From the UHGV virus genome UHGV-0016039: a DNA stretch of 44,102 nucleotides; one strand, written 5' to 3'. The position numbers and the translations under genes were made by a program. The DNA is from a virus. Positions within the stretch are counted from its first letter, which is position 1; the number at the start of each line of letters is the position of its first letter. Below are positions 1 to 44,102 of the stretch, one piece after another. The notes below the pieces were generated by a model. That model was not told the origin of the DNA and ran no database searches. It was given only the letters and a program-made list of their open reading frames with translations.

Positions 1-20
1 TTTTTTTTTGAAATTAGTTG

Positions 21-50
21 TTGACACCCATCCTGCAACCAATCTATCAT
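21..50 (+). promoter_or_regulatory. sigma70-like promoter (TTGACA-18bp-TATCAT); spacer contains TGCAACCAAT motif
   Basis: TTGACA at 21-26, TATCAT at 45-50, 18 bp spacer; upstream T9 run at 1-9. Confidence 0.5.
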
Positions 51-246
51 TCACTCCGTCGACAGGATGCAGGACGCAAACTGGAGAGGGGCAACGCAGG
101 GGCCGGATCGAAGTGTAAGGATTCCCAACCGTGATTATATAACCAGGTCCACTACCCGAACGGGGGAACGCGTAACCTGGCAATATGTTAAGGCCACCGA
201 CGAAGTTAACTGCCGACACCTAAACTTAACCAATCGGAGATATACC

Positions 247-765
247 ATGTTTGAGCAAATCGTAAACCTGATCACTCGCGGCGTAGTAGCACTGGAAACC
301 ATCGCTAAACATTATGAAACCGTCGGCGCTGCCGTTGGTAAGCAGGAAGACAAGAAGCCGTCTAAGTCCAAAAAAGAAGTTGTCGAAGATGACGACGATG
401 ACGCCGAAGACGAAAAACCGGCTAAATCTAAAAAAGCGCCTGCGAAGGGCAAGGCTAAGAAGGAAGTCGTAGAAGATGACGACGATGAAGAAGCCGAAGA
501 CGAAAAACCGGCTAAGTCTAAAAAAGCCCCGGCTAAAGGCAAAGGCAAGAAAGATGCCGATCCGCTGGCGGAGATGCGCGACGAGATCAAACAGTATGCC
601 GCGATTATTGCCGGTGGTGACGACGACGATGCGAACGACGAATTCGACGACCTGCTGGAATCGTTCGAGATCAAATCAATCGCCAAGCTGGAAGATGACG
701 ACGTCGAAGACTTCCACAAAGAGCTAAAAGAAATCGTCGAAACCTATTTCGAACTGGAAGATTAA
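247..765 (+). CDS. acidic, lysine-rich repeat protein (D/E tracts alternating with PAKSKKAPAKGK repeats); candidate early protein
   Basis: ORF track 67..765; ATG at 247 preceded by GGAGA at 236-240 (6 nt spacing); ATG at 67 has no SD; terminator immediately downstream. Confidence 0.55.
   Translation: MFEQIVNLITRGVVALETIAKHYETVGAAVGKQEDKKPSKSKKEVVEDDDDDAEDEKPAKSKKAPAKGKAKKEVVEDDDDEEAEDEKPAKSKKAPAKGKGKKDADPLAEMRDEIKQYAAIIAGGDDDDANDEFDDLLESFEIKSIAKLEDDDVEDFHKELKEIVETYFELED
343..556 (+). repeat. in-frame tandem repeat (~87-90 bp unit, 2 full copies plus a partial) encoding EDDDD-AEDEKPAKSKKAPAKGK
   Basis: near-identical DNA units starting at ~386 and ~473. Confidence 0.7.
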
Positions 766-771
766 TATTAT

Positions 772-800
772 CCGGCCCGCTAATCTGCGGGCCTATTTTT
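772..800 (+). terminator. rho-independent terminator
   Basis: GC stem ccggcccgc/gcgggcc followed by tattttt. Confidence 0.65.
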
Positions 801-813
801 AGAGGACGAGACA

Positions 814-1065
814 ATGGCACGCTTCACGCTAATCGAGGCGGTGGACTCCCGCGACCAGCGCCCATATTATTGGCTATTCGAACGCATCGGCAACTTTCAG
901 TCGCGAGTTGCCGTAATAGATAAACGCCGCAACACACCCGCGCAAATCAAGCGCACCACCTTTACTAATCCCGACTTTTATCTTTGGGCTGATTCCAATC
1001 TGGAATATGTTCGCTTTGCAGTTGCATCCGAAGCAAGAACAATCGACCGCTGGGAGACGAAATAA
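814..1065 (+). CDS. hypothetical protein (83 aa)
   Basis: ORF track; ATG 814 preceded by AGAGGA; TAATG overlap with next gene. Confidence 0.55.
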   Translation: MARFTLIEAVDSRDQRPYYWLFERIGNFQSRVAVIDKRRNTPAQIKRTTFTNPDFYLWADSNLEYVRFAVASEARTIDRWETK

Positions 1066-1247
1066 TGAAATTCTTCGTGCTGGCAACATGCCATAAGACA
1101 AACGACCATTTCTCTTTTCTTGTTATTAACAAGGACGCCTCTATGTGCTGGGTCGATGCGCAGCATGAAGTGCACCGCCGCGTCGAACAGGCGGGAATGG
1201 CTAATATCTGTAAATATGTAATTGTCCAGTTTACAAGGGTGGAATAA
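1065..1247 (+). CDS. hypothetical protein (60 aa)
   Basis: ORF track; TAATG overlaps at both ends (1063-1067, 1245-1249) suggest translational coupling. Confidence 0.45.
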   Translation: MKFFVLATCHKTNDHFSFLVINKDASMCWVDAQHEVHRRVEQAGMANICKYVIVQFTRVE

Positions 1248-2677
1248 TGGCTATTAAACCAAAGCGCAAAACACAATCAGGAAGCAATACAGAACACTCA
1301 TTACTCGGGCCATCGGGATCTAAAAAATGGATGGGGTGTCCCGCCGCCCTGGTGGTCGAAAAAGATATCCCGAACGAATCCGGGCAAGCTGCGATTAACG
1401 GTACGTGTATGCACACTGTATCGGAGGTCGTGCTAAACCGTATTATTGCCGGTGAGAAGCTGATAACCGCGAAGACGTACAAAGGGTGCTACGTCGAGAA
1501 CGAGGGTAAGGGACCAGTAAAGGCCCACCCGAAAGCACCAAAAGGCGGCGTACTGGTCAACGACGATATGGTGAAACAGTGCGATGCGTACATCGACCAC
1601 TGGCGACCACTCCTCGAGGTGGCGGAGTTTGTTCAGCTTGAGATGCGCGCCGATCTGACCCGCGTCCTTCACTCAGGCTACGAGATCGACGGCAACAGGA
1701 TTAAAACGTTCGGTACTGCCGATATGGTCATGGTCATGAAAAAGACCGATGGGACGTACATGCTGATTGTTGGCGACCTGAAGACCGGGCGGCATAAGGT
1801 CGAGGCGAAAGAGAACAAACAGCTTATGTTGTACGCGATCGGACTGCTGCGCAAGCTGCAAACTATGTACGACATTACGACCGTTCGCCTGGTTATCTTC
1901 CAGCCGTATTGCGGCGGGGCGTCGGAGTGGGATATTTCGGTAGAAGCGCTGGAGATATTCGCGAAGTTTGCATCCAAGCGCGCTATTGCCGCACTGGAGG
2001 CGTATTCCCGAGGCAAGAAGGGACTTACCCGTGCCGACTTCCGTCCCAGCGTTGATGCGTGCCAGTGGTGCCGATTTGCGGATCAGTGTAGTGCCCGCGC
2101 TAAGGCCGCAATCGACACGATGACACCTCCAACGGCAACCGACGAAGACCTGGGCGACGACGTGAGCGTGGCGACCGAGGAAGAATGCGCCAATCACGAC
2201 CGCAATATGGTCCGCGAAGCCCGAAAGGCGGCCCGACGTGCGAAGCGTGGCAAGAAAGAAGCTGCCCCCGGCGCTATGAGCGCTGCGGAACTGCGCAAGG
2301 CTTATGAAGGCCTGGACGCAATGCGCCAGCACATCAAAGCTATCGAGTCCGCGGTATTCAAAGCGGTAATGGCGGGCGATGGCGAATCGCTGGGCCTTAA
2401 GATGGTTGCCGGTAAGGAAGGGATCCGTAAGTGGGCGGACGAGAGCGAAGTTATTGAAATCTTCACGAAGGCCCGGATCAAGCGCGATGTGATGTACAAA
2501 GAAACATTGCTCAGCCCTACGGATGCCGAGAAGGTATTGAAGGACGAGAAGCCGAAAGTGTGGGCGAAGCTGTGTGATAAAATCACGCGCGCACCGGCTA
2601 AACCTGTATTAGCACCCATTGACGACCCGCGTCCTGCGTGGTCCGAAGCTACCGACGAGGACTTAAGTAATGAATAA
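1247..2677 (+). CDS. PD-(D/E)XK nuclease, DUF2800/Cas4-like, with C-terminal Cys cluster
   Basis: N-terminal LLGPSGSKKWMGCPAAL, D..K core (IVGDLKTG), CQWCRF..C cluster; position upstream of SSB-like and PolA genes. Confidence 0.75.
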   Translation: MAIKPKRKTQSGSNTEHSLLGPSGSKKWMGCPAALVVEKDIPNESGQAAINGTCMHTVSEVVLNRIIAGEKLITAKTYKGCYVENEGKGPVKAHPKAPKGGVLVNDDMVKQCDAYIDHWRPLLEVAEFVQLEMRADLTRVLHSGYEIDGNRIKTFGTADMVMVMKKTDGTYMLIVGDLKTGRHKVEAKENKQLMLYAIGLLRKLQTMYDITTVRLVIFQPYCGGASEWDISVEALEIFAKFASKRAIAALEAYSRGKKGLTRADFRPSVDACQWCRFADQCSARAKAAIDTMTPPTATDEDLGDDVSVATEEECANHDRNMVREARKAARRAKRGKKEAAPGAMSAAELRKAYEGLDAMRQHIKAIESAVFKAVMAGDGESLGLKMVAGKEGIRKWADESEVIEIFTKARIKRDVMYKETLLSPTDAEKVLKDEKPKVWAKLCDKITRAPAKPVLAPIDDPRPAWSEATDEDLSNE

Positions 2678-2912
2678 AGTATTCGCAATCTTATTGATGT
2701 TTTTGCTCGGCGCGCTGGGCTTTATCCTGCAGTGCGTGCAAGGCGTGTTAATGGTGGCATGGATGATTCGTCATCCAACCAAATGGCTGGATGACGGTTA
2801 TAGCGAAGTTGCCGTCGATTGGGTGGGGAAGAACATCAACCGCCCGCCGTTAAGCTGGATCGAGAACGCTACCAACTACGTGACCAGAAATCTTTTTAAT
2901 GAAAATGCTTGA
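2670..2912 (+). CDS. small membrane protein (80 aa)
   Basis: ORF track; hydrophobic N-terminus AILLMFLLGALGFIL; overlaps stop of upstream gene. Confidence 0.45.
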   Translation: MNKVFAILLMFLLGALGFILQCVQGVLMVAWMIRHPTKWLDDGYSEVAVDWVGKNINRPPLSWIENATNYVTRNLFNENA

Positions 2913-3002
2913 CCGCTTAGGCGCAACCAAGTAGATTAGCAACCAAGCCGAACGGGGTGGCTTCCAATAACCCCGATACATGTGAAAATGAGGAATTGGA
3001 AA

Positions 3003-3791
3003 ATGGCTAAAGTCAACCTGAAAAATGTGCGCGTATGTTTCCTGAAAATTTGGGAACGTGATACCCCTAAACAGGATGGACAAAAACCGGCATACCGCGC
3101 CGTGATTCTTCTTGATAAAGAAGACCCGCAGGTGGACAAAGTGGAGGCGGCAGCGCGCGCAGTGCTCACCGACAAGCTGAAATCCGAGAAGAATGCCGAT
3201 AAGTGGATGGACCGCCACTACGCCCAGGATTCTAAGGAATGTGCAGTTCGCGACGGCGACGAGCGCGATGAAGTAACCGAAGAGTTCGAAGGCATGTTGT
3301 ACATCAACGCCAAATCGTTCAAACAGCCTAACATCCAAACGTCACTGGGCGAGAAGCAGACCGAGCAAGGTCTGACCGTAGACGGCGACGAGATCGAAGG
3401 CCAGGAGATCTACTCCGGTTGTTATTGCAATGTGTCCCTGGATATTTGGGCGTGGAACAATACCAACGGCAAGGGGCTCGGGGCCGGCTTGCTGGGTCTG
3501 CGATTCCGTGAAGACGGCGAAGCCTTCGGGGGTGGCGGGTCTTCATGTTCTGACGAAGACCTGGACAACGATGACGAAGACGAAAGCCCGCGTAAGTCCA
3601 AAAAGTCAAAACGTCGTGATGACGATGACGAAGACGACAAGCCGCGTAAGTCCAAAAAATCCAAGCGCAGCGATGACGATGACGACGACGACGAAGACGA
3701 AAAGCCTCGCAAACGTCGTAAACCACGCGATGACGAAGATGAGGACGACGAAGACGAAGACGAAGCACCACGCAAACGTCGCCGCCGTTAA
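3003..3791 (+). CDS. DUF2815-type phage ssDNA-binding-like protein with C-terminal D/E-rich and PRKSKK repeat tail
   Basis: ATG 3003 preceded by GAGGAA; N-terminal MAKVNLKNVRV..F motif; gene order DUF2800-DUF2815-PolA. Confidence 0.7.
   Translation: MAKVNLKNVRVCFLKIWERDTPKQDGQKPAYRAVILLDKEDPQVDKVEAAARAVLTDKLKSEKNADKWMDRHYAQDSKECAVRDGDERDEVTEEFEGMLYINAKSFKQPNIQTSLGEKQTEQGLTVDGDEIEGQEIYSGCYCNVSLDIWAWNNTNGKGLGAGLLGLRFREDGEAFGGGGSSCSDEDLDNDDEDESPRKSKKSKRRDDDDEDDKPRKSKKSKRSDDDDDDDEDEKPRKRRKPRDDEDEDDEDEDEAPRKRRRR
3556..3788 (+). repeat. in-frame charged tandem repeats (DDDDEDD-KPRKSKKSKR units) at C-terminus of SSB-like protein
   Basis: repeated gacga(t/c)ga.. and ccgcgtaagtccaaaaa units visible in DNA. 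Confidence 0.65.
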
Positions 3792-3809
3792 GGGCAAAGC
3801 CCACTATTC

Positions 3810-3834
3810 AAGCCCGCTTAATGCGGGCTTTTTA
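3810..3834 (+). terminator. rho-independent terminator
   Basis: stem aagcccgc/gcgggctt followed by ttt. Confidence 0.65.
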
Positions 3835-3849
3835 ATAGGACAATGAAAA

Positions 3850-4020
3850 ATGCGTATTAAAGCCAGCGAAGTAAAAGTCGGAATGCAAGTATGGTCCAAA
3901 TTGCTGGGCGAGTATTTCACCGTTGCCGAGATTCGCAACAACGGCGAGGAGATCACCCTTTCCGACGGTATCTCCTCCATGATCGGCAGCGCTGACGCCG
4001 TAGTGAGGATAAAGCAATGA
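3850..4020 (+). CDS. small hypothetical protein (56 aa), stop overlaps PolA start (ATGA)
   Basis: ATG 3850 to TGA 4018-4020 read by hand; below the ORF-track length cutoff. Confidence 0.35.
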   Translation: MRIKASEVKVGMQVWSKLLGEYFTVAEIRNNGEEITLSDGISSMIGSADAVVRIKQ

Positions 4021-6308
4021 AAGACTTCGAACGCCTATTTCTCGACACAGAGACATTCAGCGATGTGGACCTGAAGAAAGTCGGCGCTTACGCCTACGCA
4101 GAACACCCGTCAACCGAGATTATGATTTGCACCTACGCCATCGACGAGGGCCGCGTGCAGACATGGGACGCCACTGAATCCCCCACGATGCCGCGTGAAC
4201 TACGCAAGGCGCTCCGCCATGTAACCCGCAAAAAAGCAAAAATAGTGATGGCGAACGGCCTCCTGTTTGACCGCCTGGTTATCCGTGAAAAGTGGGGCAT
4301 TGACCTGCCGGTAAGCCAGATCGAAGATACCATGATTATGGCCTTCCGACATGCGCTGCCGGGTGGCCTTGATATGCAATGCCAGGTGCTGGGCGTGGAC
4401 GCAGAGCACGCGAAGGATAAGGCGGGCAAGGCGCTGATTAAACGATTCTGTAAGCCTACCCCTAAGACCTACAAAATCCGCCGCTACACGCGCGAGACTC
4501 ACCCGGAAGAATGGGCTAAATTCCTGCGCTATGCCGCGCTGGATACTATCGCAATGCGTGAAGTCTACTGGCGCATACCGGACTGGGGCAACTCCCCGAA
4601 GGAAGACGAAATCCTGCTTATCGACCAGTTGATTAACGACCGCGGTTTCTATGTGGACGTTGACCTAGCTAACGCCGCGATCAAGGCGGTGCAGGTGCAT
4701 AAAGAAGAATTGAAGGAAGAAGCCTGGGAGCGTTTTGGCGGTAAGCTAACCGGCAACGACTTCCTGCCAATCCTGCGTGATATCGCCCCTGCGTTCACTA
4801 TTCACAACGCGCAGAAATCAACGCTGAATGACTTGCTGGAAGACCCAGACTTCCCCGACGAGGGCAAGGTGCTCATTGAGATGCGCCTCGGTGCGTCATC
4901 AACGGCATCGACTAAGTACAATCCGCTCGTCAATGGCCTGTCCGCCGATGGTCGCCGCCGTGGTTGTCTTCAGTATGGTGGGGCAAAGCGCACGCTACGC
5001 TGGGCCGGTAAAGGCTTTCAACCTCAAAACCTGGCGCGTGGCGAGTACAGCGACGACCACGAAGGGAAGATTAAACGCCGCGAGGGTGAAAGCGACGTCT
5101 CGTTTTGGGTCCGGTCGCACATGCTCACCAACGGCATCAACTCCCTGTTACGCGGGACCGCACACTGGGCGTATGACATATCGAAGCTAACGGCATCGAC
5201 CGTTCGCGGGTGCATTATTCCTGCGAAGGGTAAGAAGTTTGTCGTAGCGGACTACTCCAACGTGGAAGGGCGTGGCCTTGCCTGGATCGCTGGCGAGAAA
5301 ACAGCGCTCATGGTGTTTAAGGCCGGTCGCGATATCTATTGTGAGACTGCCGGTAAGATGTTCGGCCTGGACCCGGACTACATTAAAGCCAACCGCAAGG
5401 ACTTACGCCAGATCGGTAAGGCGTGCGAATTGGGACTGGGCTATGGTGGCGGCGTCGCGGCGTTCTTGCAGTTCGCTAAAAACCTGGGCCTCGACCTTTA
5501 CACTATGGCGGACGTGATGAAAGGCACGTTCCCGGATCACATTTGGGCGGCGGCGAAACGTGGTTATGAGTACGCTCGCATTAACGAAGCGAAGCGCCCG
5601 CCGAAGCCGGGCAAGAAGGACGAGCGCCCAACATACATACTGCCGAAAAACGTATGGCTTACTTGTGACGCAATCAAACGTATGTGGCGTGAGGCTCACC
5701 CGAAGACGGTAGCCTTTTGGGCCGAGCTTGAGGACGCTGTGTTGTGTGCAATCCGCAATCCGGGCAAAGCATACTGGGCTGGCGCGAACGTTCGCCCGGA
5801 CGGTAGAAAAGCGCTCAAGATTGTCCGTACGAAGGCGAAGCACGACCCAACCTTTGACGAGGAGCGCGACGACCCGAACGCCGCGGGGTGGTGGTTGAAA
5901 ATTGAGTTGCCGTCGGGGCGCATCATGAGCTACCCCGGCATCGCGCTGTCTGTCACGACCGAGATTGACGAAGACACCGGCAAGAAGCGCACCAGCACAC
6001 GCATTAAATATCAGGGCGAGAATCAGACGACGCGCCAGTGGGGATTCCAGTATACCTACGGCGGCAAACTGACGGAGAACATCGTACAGGCGTTGTGCCG
6101 CGATATTCTCGCATGGTCCATGCCTGGCGTTGAAGCTGCGGGGTATAAAATCGTCCTGTCGGTGCATGATGAATTGATCACAGAAGTGCCGGACACCGAC
6201 GACTACACTACCGAGGAACTTTGCGCGCTGATGTGCGACCTGCCTATTTGGGCGAAGGGCTTCCCACTTGCCGCCGAAGGCGACATCATGTACAGGTACA
6301 GGAAGTAA
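4017..6308 (+). CDS. DNA polymerase, family A, with 3'-5' exonuclease domain
   Basis: N-terminal LFLDTETFS exo motif; RQIGKACELGLGYGGG (motif B K...YG); VHDELITEV (motif C). Confidence 0.92.
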   Translation: MKDFERLFLDTETFSDVDLKKVGAYAYAEHPSTEIMICTYAIDEGRVQTWDATESPTMPRELRKALRHVTRKKAKIVMANGLLFDRLVIREKWGIDLPVSQIEDTMIMAFRHALPGGLDMQCQVLGVDAEHAKDKAGKALIKRFCKPTPKTYKIRRYTRETHPEEWAKFLRYAALDTIAMREVYWRIPDWGNSPKEDEILLIDQLINDRGFYVDVDLANAAIKAVQVHKEELKEEAWERFGGKLTGNDFLPILRDIAPAFTIHNAQKSTLNDLLEDPDFPDEGKVLIEMRLGASSTASTKYNPLVNGLSADGRRRGCLQYGGAKRTLRWAGKGFQPQNLARGEYSDDHEGKIKRREGESDVSFWVRSHMLTNGINSLLRGTAHWAYDISKLTASTVRGCIIPAKGKKFVVADYSNVEGRGLAWIAGEKTALMVFKAGRDIYCETAGKMFGLDPDYIKANRKDLRQIGKACELGLGYGGGVAAFLQFAKNLGLDLYTMADVMKGTFPDHIWAAAKRGYEYARINEAKRPPKPGKKDERPTYILPKNVWLTCDAIKRMWREAHPKTVAFWAELEDAVLCAIRNPGKAYWAGANVRPDGRKALKIVRTKAKHDPTFDEERDDPNAAGWWLKIELPSGRIMSYPGIALSVTTEIDEDTGKKRTSTRIKYQGENQTTRQWGFQYTYGGKLTENIVQALCRDILAWSMPGVEAAGYKIVLSVHDELITEVPDTDDYTTEELCALMCDLPIWAKGFPLAAEGDIMYRYRK

Positions 6309-6586
6309 TGACACCAGAAGGCAAGATTCAAAGTCACCTGATGAAACGGGTGAAAGAGGTCGGCGGATTCTGCCGCAAACTGGCATGGGAGGGACGCGCA
6401 GGTGCGCCCGACCTGATTATCATAATCAACGGCATCATAGTATTCGTCGAAGTGAAGCGCCCCGGAGGAAAACCGAAGCCACACCAGGTACGTGAGCATG
6501 AGCGAATGGTCCGCCGCGGTGCTGACGTTCGCGTCATCGACAACATATCCGACTGCGATTTATTGGTTGCTGAATTGGTCGCATAG
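6308..6586 (+). CDS. VRR-NUC domain nuclease
   Basis: ATG 6308 overlaps PolA stop (TAATG); GAPDLIII..VFVEVKRPGGKPKPHQ motif. Confidence 0.7.
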   Translation: MTPEGKIQSHLMKRVKEVGGFCRKLAWEGRAGAPDLIIIINGIIVFVEVKRPGGKPKPHQVREHERMVRRGADVRVIDNISDCDLLVAELVA

Positions 6587-6626
6587 CGGTATAGTGTGCC
6601 GGTTAGCCATATCGAGGATTTTAGAG

Positions 6627-6800
6627 ATGATTGAAGAAAAACGTTGTAGTAATTGCGGCTGTGTAAAGCCGCTATCCCAGTTCCACAAATACACCGGTAA
6701 GACTGCGCGCAGTCCAGACGGGTATCGGGCAGAGTGCAAATCGTGCCGCAATAAGAAAGAGCGCGAACGGCAGCGCCGCTACCGTGCAGAACAAAAATAA
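6627..6800 (+). CDS. small zinc-ribbon protein (CxxC...CxxC), basic C-terminus
   Basis: ATG 6627 preceded by GAGG; CSNCGC ... CKSCRNKK. Confidence 0.5.
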   Translation: MIEEKRCSNCGCVKPLSQFHKYTGKTARSPDGYRAECKSCRNKKERERQRRYRAEQK

Positions 6801-6807
6801 TTAATAC

Positions 6808-6830
6808 GGCGGGCTTGTCCCGCCCTTTTT
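6808..6830 (+). terminator. rho-independent terminator
   Basis: stem ggcggg/cccgcc followed by ttttt. Confidence 0.65.
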
Positions 6831-6843
6831 GGGAGACATGACG

Positions 6844-7062
6844 ATGAAAGAACATTACCGACTCACCAAGCTGGGCGAATGTAAACCGGGCGATCGCGTA
6901 TGGTTTATCGCGGGCATGAATGATCCGCTGCCGTTGACGGTGTGCTGGCAAAAATTTAAGAGCTTCCGGGCTACCGGTGTGCACATCGGACACGCCACCA
7001 ACTACGACGCTACAAAAAGGAACTGGAACAGTGAGACTGAAGTCTGGAAAAAGGCGGAATAA
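6844..7062 (+). CDS. hypothetical protein (72 aa)
   Basis: ORF track starts at TTG 6829; ATG 6844 is 8 nt after GGGAG. Confidence 0.5.
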   Translation: MKEHYRLTKLGECKPGDRVWFIAGMNDPLPLTVCWQKFKSFRATGVHIGHATNYDATKRNWNSETEVWKKAE

Positions 7063-7066
7063 CGAC

Positions 7067-8491
7067 ATGGCAAGATTCCGACGCCGCGAATATCAGAAGT
7101 TGATAACCGCGTTCATCCTCAAGCATAAGCGATGTAATATCTGGGCGACAATGGGATCCGGTAAAACCGGCGCGACAATGTGGGCGCTGAATAAAATGTT
7201 CCAGACTGGCGTCCTGTCCCATCATGAGGACCGCGTACTGGTGCTGGCCCCGCTGCGTGTTGCGTCGGGTACATGGCCCCCGGAACAGGAGAAATGGCGG
7301 TTCTCATCCCTGCTGGTCGTAGACGGCACCGGACCGGAGAAGGACCGTATTGCCGCGCTTGAGAGCGACGCTAACGTGGTTTGTGTTAACTACGATGTGG
7401 TTGAGTGGCTGGTCGACTATTACGGCGATGCGTGGCCCTTTACGGTCGTTGTTGCCGATGAATCGACTAAGCTGAAAGGCTATCGAAGCAAGCAGGGGAG
7501 CAAGCGCGCCCGCGCACTGGCAGCGATTGCACATAAACACGTCAAGCGCTGGATTAACCTTACCGGCACACCCGCACCCAACGGGCTGAAAGACTTATGG
7601 GGTCAGACGTGGTTTGTCGACGGTGGCGAACGCCTCGGCAGTAGCTATAAGGCATTTACCGACCGCTGGTTTATTAGCAAGCCTGTTAAGCCTGGCAGCT
7701 TCACTATGCAGCACGCCCCGCTCAAGAACTCCGAGAAGGAGATCCAACAACGCCTGTCTGACGTATCCCTTACCGTTGACGCGGCTGAATACTTCGGATG
7801 TGACAAGCCAATCTATACTCCGGTTGTTGTGGACCTGCCGAAGAAAGCCCGCAAGATTTATGACCAGTTCGAAGCGGAGCTATTTGCCGAACTGGAAAGC
7901 GGAACGGTGGAGGCGGCGAACGCGGCTTCGAAGACTATTAAGTGCCTTCAGCTTGCTTCCGGGGCCGTGTATAAAGTCGACGAAGACGGCGAGCGCACCG
8001 ACGAATGGGTGAAAATCCACGACGCTAAACTGGACGCGCTGGAAAGTATCGTGGAGGAGTTGAACGGCGCACCGTTGCTCGTCGCGTACCAGTACAAGCA
8101 TGACCTGGCGCGTCTCAAGAAGAAATTCCCGCACGGCGTAGCGATGGGTAAGGGTAAGCAAGGCAATAAGGACATGGAAGCGTGGAACAGGGGCGAGATC
8201 CCCATCATGTTCGCACACCCGGCATCGGCGGGTCACGGCCTTAACTTGCAGGATGGCGGACACCACCTTGCCATCTTCTCCGACACCTGGAACTATGAGC
8301 ATTTTTCGCAGATTGTGGAGCGTATCGGGCCGGTTCGCCAGATGCAAGCCGGACACCCTCGTCCGGTATTCGTCTACATTATCCAGGCGCGCGGAACACT
8401 GGACGAACTGGTCGCCGAGCGTCGCGACAGTAAGCGAGATATACAGGACGACTTGATGGAATACATGAAAGCTAAAAAGGCGCGCAAATGA
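7067..8491 (+). CDS. SNF2-family (DEAD/DEAH-box) helicase
   Basis: ATG 7067; Walker A ATMGSGKTG, VVADESTKLKG, LTGTPAPNGLKDLW. Confidence 0.88.
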   Translation: MARFRRREYQKLITAFILKHKRCNIWATMGSGKTGATMWALNKMFQTGVLSHHEDRVLVLAPLRVASGTWPPEQEKWRFSSLLVVDGTGPEKDRIAALESDANVVCVNYDVVEWLVDYYGDAWPFTVVVADESTKLKGYRSKQGSKRARALAAIAHKHVKRWINLTGTPAPNGLKDLWGQTWFVDGGERLGSSYKAFTDRWFISKPVKPGSFTMQHAPLKNSEKEIQQRLSDVSLTVDAAEYFGCDKPIYTPVVVDLPKKARKIYDQFEAELFAELESGTVEAANAASKTIKCLQLASGAVYKVDEDGERTDEWVKIHDAKLDALESIVEELNGAPLLVAYQYKHDLARLKKKFPHGVAMGKGKQGNKDMEAWNRGEIPIMFAHPASAGHGLNLQDGGHHLAIFSDTWNYEHFSQIVERIGPVRQMQAGHPRPVFVYIIQARGTLDELVAERRDSKRDIQDDLMEYMKAKKARK

Positions 8492-9183
8492 TTATCTGGT
8501 CATTATTTGACGGCAGCGGATTGATGATCGAGCGTGCTGCCGAGATGGGGCATAAGTGTTATTGCTTCAACTACTCCGAAGCCGATCACGGGTCTTACCT
8601 GGACTACCGGATCTATGGTCGCGGTATCCGATATCGTAATGAGTTTATCGATCTGGACTTTGTAGACCGCGCGATGAATGGCGATTTCGGTACGCCAGAT
8701 ATCATCTACGCATTCCCGCCGTGTACTGATCTGGCGGTGAGCGGTGCGCCAGCTTTCCCGCGCAAACGCGCCCGCGACCCGGCCTTCCAGCTTAAGGCGG
8801 TGCGCACCGCGAAGATCGCAGCTTACCTGGGTGACTTCTTCGAAGTGCCATATATGATTGAGAATCCGCGCAGTGTGCTTTCCACCCAGTGGCGTAAGCC
8901 GGACCACTCGTTTGATCCGTGGGAGTATGGGGGATATCTGCCGGAGGATGACGTACACCCGCTCTTCCCTGAATACATCAACGCCCGCGATTCATATCCG
9001 AAGCTGACCTGCTTATGGGCCGGCAACGGCTTCCGTATGCCGGAGAAGAAACCTGTTTTCGTTGAAAAAGGGTACTCGAAACAGTATAGTCGCCTCGGTG
9101 GTAAATCCGCTCGTACAAAATTAATCCGGTCGCTCACTCCGCGCGGCTTCGCGATAGCGGTTAACGAGGAAAATTTAAAATGA
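8488..9183 (+). CDS. minimal C5-cytosine methyltransferase-like protein (motif I/IV/VI-like, no obvious target-recognition domain)
   Basis: SLFDGSG (FxGxG-like), FPPCTDLAVSG (PC motif), MIENPRS (ENV-like); ATGA overlap with helicase stop. Confidence 0.45.
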   Translation: MIIWSLFDGSGLMIERAAEMGHKCYCFNYSEADHGSYLDYRIYGRGIRYRNEFIDLDFVDRAMNGDFGTPDIIYAFPPCTDLAVSGAPAFPRKRARDPAFQLKAVRTAKIAAYLGDFFEVPYMIENPRSVLSTQWRKPDHSFDPWEYGGYLPEDDVHPLFPEYINARDSYPKLTCLWAGNGFRMPEKKPVFVEKGYSKQYSRLGGKSARTKLIRSLTPRGFAIAVNEENLK

Positions 9184-40918: not shown

Positions 40919-41077
40919 CCAATATTAATCACGCGTATGAAAAAGTTGATCGCTATCTGCTGAATCTGCAAACCGCATTTTTCACTTTCCATTCTGCAAC
41001 TCGCATTGGTTGCCGAGTTCATCGACGACCGCAATTTGCATCATGTTGCCGTGCGGTATGCAATCCTGGATTTTATG

Positions 41078-41260
41078 CAGTCTCAGACGAGGGGGGTGCC
41101 AGACCCCCCGTCTAGTCTGAAAGACTGGGGTGCCGTCCCGCTGTCCCGCTCCTCTGGAAGCCGCGTCATCCGGGGCGGGACGGGGGTGCTGTCCCGCTTT
41201 GTCCCGCCTCTGGTCTGTCCCGCCTTTTGTCCCGCTTGTTTTATGCAGTAAAATTGCATA
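41078..41260. repeat. composite repeat copy B (hairpin, GTCCCGC iterons, ATGCA-N7-TGCAT palindrome)
   Basis: near-identical to 24618-24800 except for a 35-bp substituted core. Confidence 0.7.
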
Positions 41261-41341
41261 ACTATTCACTATATCCACACTACACGGCAACCAATGCGAC
41301 CGACTAAAAGCACTCAAAATGGCAACCAATGCGCGCAGAAT

Positions 41342-43606
41342 TTAGTCTTTTAAGTCGTCATCGGTCGCAGAAAGCGTGGTGGGTATATTCGTTTTGATGA
41401 CGATATTCGACGACCCATAGATGGCCCCGGTGTGTGGGTCTGTATAAAAGCCGAGTACGCCGCGCTCCACCATATCGTCGATTGCCTTCGTCGATGTGCC
41501 ACCTTTTGCCAATCCCGCCTGGCGGACAATTGCCGATTTACTGAATCCGGTATGGTCCGGGTTATCTTCCATCAGTTTTTCCAGCGCCGCATAAAGCACT
41601 TTCTCTTTTTCGTTGCGCGGGCCTGCGGCGTTCTCGTCCTTAACTGCTGCCTTGCCCGCGGACTTCGCCTGCTCAATGGCGAACGGTGCCAGGGCAACTG
41701 GTACGAGGTAGAGAGTCTCGTCGCGTGGCGTGGATGCGATTGGCTTGACGTCCCAACCGGCAACCACATCGCCGAAGTCCGGCCCGGTGCTGGTGGACTG
41801 GTGGGCTTCGAACGCTTCGGACTTGCGGAGATCCACCTTAACCTTGCACTTGAGCAGGACGAAGCCGCGTGGCGCTTGCTTGATGCCGTTACGTGCCTTT
41901 TCGTGATACAGGTTCAATTGGCCTGGTTGGTTGTCGTCCGGCTGTTCCAGGAAGAACGCGGAATCAACAGCACCATGAAGCGCGCCGGACCCGCGTGGCG
42001 TTCTGCTGCCGTTTGCACCTTTCGCCGGGTGGTGGATGACGCCCGCACTGCCGCCTGTATTTTCCGCAATGGCTTTCAGCGCTTTGACCACTTCACCCAT
42101 ATCGCTGGCGTTGTTCTCGTCAAACGGTTTAGCATCGGCGGACCGCAGCGCAACAGTCTGGTTGAGGGAGTCGAACGCCACCAGGCCCACCGGTTCGCCG
42201 TTAGCGGTGCGGTTGATGAAGCTGATAACTTCACGCAAGCCGGATTTGCTGGTGATATCCCAGCCGCGAGATTGCAGGTCGATAATGTGCAGCTTGTCCA
42301 GGTCGTGCTCATATTTGATCTGCAGTGCTTCCTTACGCTGGTTGGAGGCTTCGCCACCTTCCGCATCGAAATAGAAGTTGTGGCACTGGACGACCTTCGC
42401 CCCGCCAAACGGAATACCGGCAGATACTGACGCCATCTGGCCCAGCACGTAGAACGACTTGCCGATGTTCGACTCACCGGCGAGATACCAGGTCGATTTG
42501 AAGTTGACCAGGCCTTCGATGATCGGGTCGTGCTTACTGAACAGTGCGACCGGCTCGTTGTCCAGGTCTGCATCAGTACACACGCCGTACTCGTCGCCGT
42601 CGCCAACCGCATCAACGATATGTTCATAGCAGGATTCCACTTCCTCGTCGTCCAGTCCCGGAAGGATGGCGGCGATTTGCTTACGTGACATGTTGTGCGG
42701 TTCGACGTTCAGGTGGTCCGGGATCCCGATAAGACGTAGCGCCAGGTGCTGGTGTCTGTTCAGTTCGGAACAGCACTCGTTTCCGGTGTGCATACACTTG
42801 AAACGGATCTCGCCATCCTTGACCATGATAGCGGTGGACCCTTCGCCGCTGTGCAGGTGTTCGTTCGGGCACGGCACTTCATAGCCCCGACCGGACGACA
42901 GCGGTTCGAATCCTGCCTTGAAGCACCAATCCAGAATACCGTCCGCCACGCCGTCATCGCCCTGGGTCAGTTCGCGGCGGACTTCCTCTTTCTCAACTCC
43001 CAGCTTGTCCGCCAGGCGGAGCAGACGGCGGACGCGGGCGCGCTTGCCGTAGTGGCACTTAATAACAGACTGCTGGTGTGGCAGGTACATCAGGCGGTTT
43101 GTGTCTTTCGTGCAGTCGTCGAAGTCCACATCTGACAGGCCCAGTTGGTGTAATAGCGCATACTGGACACGCCCCAGGTCTTCAGCCGGTACAGGCTTGT
43201 CGGTCAACACCAGGAAGCGAGCGCAACGCGTTCCACCTTTCAGTGGGTGACGGTCGCCGGTTGTGGTGTGAAATACGTGTTCCAGACCCGAGTCAATGAA
43301 CGCCTTACGGCAGCGGCGTAGGGTGCGGGTGTCGGTACGGTCAATATCGAAGAACAGGATCGAGCGGTCCACCGCGCTGGTCTTGCGACGTAAGCCGTCA
43401 CTGGTATAAGCCACAATGCCATCGGCCTTACGCTTGCGGCGCGCATACTCCGCTTTATCTTCCGTCTTGTTGATATGCACCGAGGATATTTCTTTCGCAT
43501 CATTAATAAATTCGAAAAACTCATCAGTGGTCATCTGGAAGTTTTCCGCCCTGGCTTTTTCGCCTTTTTTAGCGGGTCTTGTTACTGCGAATTTAATTAA
43601 GCTCAT
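41342..43606 (-). CDS. DNA primase / RecA-like (DnaB/RepA-type) helicase fusion protein
   Basis: Walker A AGESNIGKS, Walker B-like VAFDSLNQ, Cys/His cluster, 754 aa. Confidence 0.8.
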   Translation of the reverse strand: MSLIKFAVTRPAKKGEKARAENFQMTTDEFFEFINDAKEISSVHINKTEDKAEYARRKRKADGIVAYTSDGLRRKTSAVDRSILFFDIDRTDTRTLRRCRKAFIDSGLEHVFHTTTGDRHPLKGGTRCARFLVLTDKPVPAEDLGRVQYALLHQLGLSDVDFDDCTKDTNRLMYLPHQQSVIKCHYGKRARVRRLLRLADKLGVEKEEVRRELTQGDDGVADGILDWCFKAGFEPLSSGRGYEVPCPNEHLHSGEGSTAIMVKDGEIRFKCMHTGNECCSELNRHQHLALRLIGIPDHLNVEPHNMSRKQIAAILPGLDDEEVESCYEHIVDAVGDGDEYGVCTDADLDNEPVALFSKHDPIIEGLVNFKSTWYLAGESNIGKSFYVLGQMASVSAGIPFGGAKVVQCHNFYFDAEGGEASNQRKEALQIKYEHDLDKLHIIDLQSRGWDITSKSGLREVISFINRTANGEPVGLVAFDSLNQTVALRSADAKPFDENNASDMGEVVKALKAIAENTGGSAGVIHHPAKGANGSRTPRGSGALHGAVDSAFFLEQPDDNQPGQLNLYHEKARNGIKQAPRGFVLLKCKVKVDLRKSEAFEAHQSTSTGPDFGDVVAGWDVKPIASTPRDETLYLVPVALAPFAIEQAKSAGKAAVKDENAAGPRNEKEKVLYAALEKLMEDNPDHTGFSKSAIVRQAGLAKGGTSTKAIDDMVERGVLGFYTDPHTGAIYGSSNIVIKTNIPTTLSATDDDLKD

Positions 43607-43616
43607 TGCCGTGGCC

Positions 43617-43946
43617 TTACTTAAAAGTTTTATTATTGCGTACCCAGGAGCGCACTGTGCTCTGATTAATTCCGGTCAACTCGGCAATCATCGCCCACGA
43701 TTTTCCCTCGTCGCGCAAACGTATAACCTGCTTTTTGTATTCTTCCATTTCTTCATTGTGCTTTTGCAGCTTGCTCGCGGCCGTGCCGTTGAGCAATTCC
43801 AGCCTGGCGCGTAATTCTTTCTCGACACTGCGCAGTCGTTCGATTTCAAATAACACCGCCCCCACGGCATCTGTATAAGCCCATGACCGGCTTGTCTCAC
43901 TGCAAACAGTCTTCGTTAACATTTCGATTGCGCCGTTTACATTCAT
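43617..43946 (-). CDS. HTH DNA-binding protein (109 aa)
   Basis: C-terminal HTH-like WAMIAELTGINQSTVRSWVRNN; ATG 43946 with GAGGG. Confidence 0.55.
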   Translation of the reverse strand: MNVNGAIEMLTKTVCSETSRSWAYTDAVGAVLFEIERLRSVEKELRARLELLNGTAASKLQKHNEEMEEYKKQVIRLRDEGKSWAMIAELTGINQSTVRSWVRNNKTFK

Positions 43947-44102
43947 TGCTCTGCCCTCAGTTGGTTAATGACCAACGAAACTACACCCAAAACCGCACGG
44001 TGTCAAATCCTTTGGATATTGAAACGGGCGCGCACGCGTGTAATAATAATTCCCGTCTCATTGTCTCTTATTGGTTAGCGCCGTCGCATTTTGCCTCGGC
44101 GC

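Follow-up and report, generated by a model that had tools for sequence, protein, structure and literature searches.

The replication genes of this phage very probably (about 85%, in our estimate) form one contiguous replication-recombination supermodule of ~11.3 kb, which covers positions 41342–44102 and 1–8491 of the window (the whole stretch of 44,102 nucleotides analysed here) and in which two operons with a T7-like division of labour diverge from a control region of ~0.4 kb. The leftward operon carries the gene of an HTH DNA-binding protein first and the primase-helicase second, and the rightward operon carries, in order, a DUF2800 nuclease, a ssDNA-binding protein (SSB), a family A polymerase, a VRR-NUC nuclease and an SNF2 protein. 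Interleaved with the latter are four small conserved ORFs (2670–2912, 3850–4020, 6627–6800 and 6838–7062) that the original prediction did not include. The features are as follows.

41342–43606, − strand: primase-helicase, 754 aa (phrog_3228, Pfam AAA_25, fold comparison)
43617–43946, − strand: small HTH DNA-binding protein, 109 aa (Pfam HTH_23, HTH_28, Sigma70_r4_2; phrog_9366)
43947–44102, no strand: left half of the divergent control region, with promoter-like sites and a hairpin; contiguous with window position 1
1–246, no strand: right half of the divergent control region and leader, with a rightward promoter-like site
247–765, + strand: first rightward gene, polyampholyte repeat protein (phrog_3127)
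814–1247, + strand: two small conserved genes, 814–1065 and 1065–1247 (phrog_4965, phrog_9934)
1247–2677, + strand: DUF2800 RecB/Cas4-like PD-(D/E)XK nuclease (Pfam DUF2800, PDDEXK_1; phrog_69)
2670–2912, + strand: 80-aa protein with a hydrophobic N-terminus (phrog_11211, E 6.4e-51)
2982–3791, + strand: gp2.5-like/DUF2815 ssDNA-binding and annealing protein (Pfam Enc34_ssDNA-bd, phrog_112)
3850–4020, + strand: 56-aa conserved protein (phrog_10102, E 3.7e-41), whose stop overlaps the polymerase start
4017–6308, + strand: family A DNA polymerase with 3'-5' proofreading exonuclease (Pfam DNA_pol_A, phrog_17)
6308–6586, + strand: stand-alone VRR-NUC nuclease, 92 aa (PDB 4QBN, 4QBO; phrog_93)
6627–6800, + strand: 57-aa CxxC...CxxC zinc-ribbon protein (phrog_5558, phrog_1035)
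6838–7062, + strand: 74-aa conserved protein (phrog_9291, E 2.4e-47)
7067–8491, + strand: SNF2-family (SF2) dsDNA translocase/helicase, 474 aa (SNF2-rel_dom, phrog_62, PDB)

Genome map and control region

The stretch is a complete, circularly represented genome of a Dhillonvirus (HK578-like) phage of E. coli. More than 150 deposited phages resemble the whole window at ~93% identity, and positions 1–9000 were matched by 166 phage records, nearly all of them Dhillonvirus and 152 of them at 90–95% identity. In BLASTN alignments, the sequence of two relatives passed from window position 44102 to position 1 unbroken, base for base; in L001, positions 3214–6000 aligned with window 41315–44102, and position 6001 onward aligned with position 1 onward. 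Furthermore, the deposited Dhillonvirus records start at many points, which differ between records. Given this contiguity and the varied record starts, the alignments indicate that the window ends are an arbitrary cut inside the divergent intergenic region. The large terminase subunit is of the T4 type and the small one bears a weak resemblance to P22 gp3 and Sf6, which agrees with headful packaging and a permuted map; judging from the relatives and the terminase type, the present genome is probably circularly permuted.

It had been proposed that the replisome is split, its parts lying ~33 kb from each other over early and late-strand regions. This proved to be an artefact of the linear record: the gap is illusory because the circular map was opened right beside the primase-helicase, and on the true map only 1,743 nt lie between the primase-helicase start (43606) and the nuclease start (1247).

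The left half of the control region holds a + strand promoter-like site (TTGAAA-17-AATAAT, with TG upstream, at 44019–44047), a − strand TTGACA that precedes the HTH gene by ~55 nt, and a GC hairpin (gcgccg...cggcgc) with its T-run at window 1–9. In the right half, a rightward promoter-like site, TTGACA(21)-18-TATCAT(50), matches the consensus at 11 of 12 positions, its spacer contains the TTGGTTGC motif at 35–42, and positions 52–246 are strongly conserved. These promoter-like sites are consensus matches only and showed no significant enrichment over shuffles. The TTGGTTGC motif is over-represented in intergenic sequence, and iteron-like CGGGACA arrays adjoin the primase gene. The product of the first rightward gene contains a D/E run and KPAKSKK polyampholyte repeats (repeat families D1, D3 and D4). 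Its ATG at 247 is preceded by a GGAGA Shine-Dalgarno sequence; an alternative ATG lies at 67, and in the long ORF the phrog_3127 match starts at residue 61.

Proteins of the two operons

The five named genes were all found at the coordinates and on the strand originally predicted, and Pfam and PHROG profile searches assigned the cassette ORFs to the predicted families rather than to unrelated ones. The description of a widespread phage Pol I-type cassette was likewise correct, the polymerase family being present in 1,548 phage records. The cassette is real, correctly labelled and already known, and it is well catalogued for Dhillonvirus.

The nuclease scored 223.8 bits for DUF2800 (Pfam cut-off 21), with PDDEXK_1 in addition, and matched the phrog_69 exonuclease with an E of 3.6e-106; its Cas4 and DruK matches were weak. 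The RecB motif residues E132, D159, D177-x-K179 and Q192-x3-Y196 are invariant from Dhillonvirus to Chi, as are C31, C272, C275 and C281, a four-cysteine pattern that is probably Fe-S. The 80-aa protein encoded next is probably membrane-associated. The SSB (111 bits for Enc34_ssDNA-bd, formerly DUF2815, against a cut-off of 26; phrog_112, gp2.5-like) resembles the solved DUF2815/Enc34 SSB structures 4KLK, 4JG2 and 5ODJ, and consists of an OB-fold core at about residues 10–200 and a tail of ~70 aa. The tail is a polyampholyte of four acidic/basic repeats with RKRRRR at its end. T7 gp2.5 contacts the polymerase and helicase through an acidic tail with an aromatic end; the tail found here is basic-ended, so that protein contacts of the T7 kind should not be taken for granted.

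The polymerase (60.7 bits for DNA_pol_A, cut-off 34.3; phrog_17, E 1.9e-130) has motifs A, B and C and ExoI–III. Alignment to Taq placed motifs A and B at 395–478 and motif C at 700–727, with ~130 extra residues separating motifs B and C. The Phe762 equivalent is Leu (L472). D10, E12, Y172, D176, D412, E417, R464, K468, L472, Y476 and H717-D718-E719 are invariant.

The VRR-NUC protein scored 22.8 bits in Pfam, just below the cut-off of 23.8; along its full length, it aligned to the solved stand-alone VRR-Nuc 4QBN, the saNUC of Salmonella phage SETP3 (E 3.6e-23), and it also matched 4QBO (E 6.2e-14) and phrog_93 (E 1.2e-31). The gene most likely begins with the ATG at 6308, which overlaps the polymerase stop codon, rather than with the TTG at 6221. 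SETP3 saNUC is a dimer that was demonstrated to cut four-way junctions (PMC4103454), and we predict that the present protein acts as a dimeric Holliday-junction resolvase. The 57-aa protein is similar to EndoVII, HNH or Lar-like proteins in their zinc-finger part but has no nuclease core. The ORF at 6977–8491 scored 40.5 bits for SNF2-rel_dom (cut-off 24.9) and matched phrog_62 with an E of 4.2e-158, with Helicase_C below the Pfam cut-off; it matched PDB Snf2 entries, and the Sulfolobus Rad54-like 1Z63 aligned over residues 55–463. Translation most likely begins from the ATG at 7067, where the relatives' annotation places the start, rather than at 6977.

The ORF predicted to encode the primase-helicase proved genuine and, as had been noted, adjoins repeat copy B (41073–41333). 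It matched phrog_3228, "replicative helicase-primase", with an E of 0, as well as AAA_25, and its primase half was identified by fold comparison: an AEP prim-pol domain at about residues 1–205 is followed by a Cys/His zinc-type module (~240–290) and a RepA-like RecA-fold helicase (~355–600) that has T7 gp4 among its fold matches. The C-terminal helical domain (~660–740) may be a winged helix. In the profile searches, the primase domain had no Pfam or NCBIfam match. Directly upstream, the HTH protein scored 29.8 bits for HTH_23 (cut-off 24.6) and also matched HTH_28 and Sigma70_r4_2; PhiSTP1 and Chi have a DNA-binding/regulator gene in the equivalent position, and this protein could be a regulator or could bind the origin.

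Proposed mechanism and alternatives

The analysis established the protein families, the catalytic residues, the adjacency of the genes and the conserved layout. How might these proteins work together? We infer both their division of labour and the timing of their expression. By analogy with T7, the primase-helicase, in which an AEP-type primase is fused to a RepA/DnaB-like ring helicase by way of the Cys/His module, would open the fork and make primers, the polymerase would copy both strands and the SSB would coat ssDNA. The nuclease and the SSB could form a two-component recombinase for resection and annealing, by which concatemers would be built and forks restarted, and the SNF2 motor and VRR-NUC would then remodel and cut branched DNA, making it fit for packaging by the headful terminase.

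Could the cassette instead serve mainly recombination and repair, with host DnaB, DnaG and Pol III performing the bulk synthesis, PolA filling gaps and the primase-helicase acting as an initiator only? We consider this unlikely. The profile searches found no clamp, clamp loader or processivity factor in the window, and the nuclease–SSB and VRR-NUC–SNF2 pairs are recombination-type functions; however, the phage has its own full minimal set of primase, ring helicase, proofreading polymerase and SSB. These are what T7 needs, thioredoxin aside. Lower speed and higher accuracy have been ascribed to Leu762 polymerases (PMC6302109), but the polymerase is 98–100% identical to deposited Dhillonvirus proteins across the genus. 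In HK578, moreover, escapers from OLD, a replication-sensing defence, were hit in the helicase-primase gp46, in the promoter of gp45–gp46, a pair described as a single operon, and in gp43, which adjoins the exonuclease/SSB operon (bioRxiv 10.64898/2026.07.10.737580).

It is still less probable that SNF2 is the fork helicase for this polymerase class and that the AEP-RepA protein has another role, for example in melting the origin or in plasmid-like initiation only. Although SNF2 and the polymerase are co-transcribed, enzymes of the SNF2 family act as dsDNA translocases and remodellers rather than as replicative helicases that separate strands. Nasko et al. linked Leu762 PolA with non-ring SF2 helicases (PMC6302109); a survey of contig neighbours could, however, miss the primase-helicase because it is encoded on the other strand and Pfam and NCBIfam have no match for its primase domain, and a primase-fused RepA/DnaB-like ring helicase adjoins the cassette in three lineages. 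A real split, with an early polymerase cassette and a separately regulated primase-helicase ~33 kb off in the late-gene strand, is scarcely credible: the genes are 32.9 kb apart in linear coordinates and the lysis and structural genes lie on the same strand as the primase-helicase, but the relatives run seamlessly from 44102 to 1, the records of the genus begin at arbitrary points, the primase-helicase is second from the shared control region, a 480-nt non-coding repeat region parts it from the downstream small and lysis genes, and Chi and PhiSTP1 keep this layout.

Comparison with known systems

The single divergent supermodule is repeated in Dhillonvirus relatives (StarDew gp36–gp49, PaulFeyerabend (Bas15) bas15_0037–0051 and HK578 gp43–gp46), which are ~92–94% identical in nucleotide sequence across the entire replication region, have the same divergent HTH and helicase-primase operon, and are alike in gene order and orientation except between the polymerase and VRR-NUC (6.3–6.6 kb), where PaulFeyerabend has an extra 63-aa ORF. 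Small indels, ORF swaps and the record start point are the only differences. In the StarDew and PaulFeyerabend annotations, the helicase-primase and a small upstream gene adjoin the cassette divergently. The same layout was seen in Cornellvirus PhiSTP1 (polymerase ~65% identical) and Chi (~29%), with the regulator and primase leftward and the exonuclease, SSB, polymerase, nuclease and helicase rightward. The synteny comparison bore out the predicted gene order in PhiSTP1, Chi and Xfas53; in Xfas53, no primase gene adjoins the cassette on the upstream side.

The "duf2800-gp2.5-polA module" has already been named (PMC8093625), and RecB-like and SNF2-like genes have been described as neighbours of Leu762 Group I PolA (PMC6302109). 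Its examples, Chi gp6–gp10, Xfas53 gene10–gene04, Enc34 and the Jersey-like and Cornellvirus phages, share the order nuclease, gp2.5-like SSB, PolA, small nuclease and SNF2 helicase, and Leu at the 762-equivalent position is invariant in the module polymerases compared. Extra segments between motifs B and C occur in Dhillonvirus and Cornellvirus polymerases, and a 21-aa insert (residues 346–367) in Dhillonvirus alone. The SSB genes of Chi (597 nt) and Xfas53 (567 nt), compared with 810 nt here, are too short for the polyampholyte tail.

The parallel set in T7 comprises the gp4 primase-helicase, gp5 polymerase, gp2.5 SSB, gp6 exonuclease and gp3 endonuclease I. The functional parts list is the same in both phages: the primase is fused to a RecA-fold ring helicase, the polymerase is of family A and has proofreading, the SSB/annealase belongs to the gp2.5 family, and a 5' exonuclease and a junction-resolving nuclease complete the set. 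On the other hand, the T7 primase is of the zinc-finger and TOPRIM DnaG type, whereas that of the present phage is AEP-type; the T7 exonuclease is FEN-like rather than RecB/Cas4-type, its resolvase is endonuclease I rather than VRR-NUC, and its polymerase has Tyr rather than Leu at position 762. The SNF2 motor is additional in the present phage, and its SSB tail is not purely acidic, unlike that of T7. Also among the closest known systems are the RepB' primase and RepA helicase of the IncQ plasmid RSF1010, which are separate proteins, and the alpha protein of phage P4, whose primase is of another type and whose helicase belongs to SF3.

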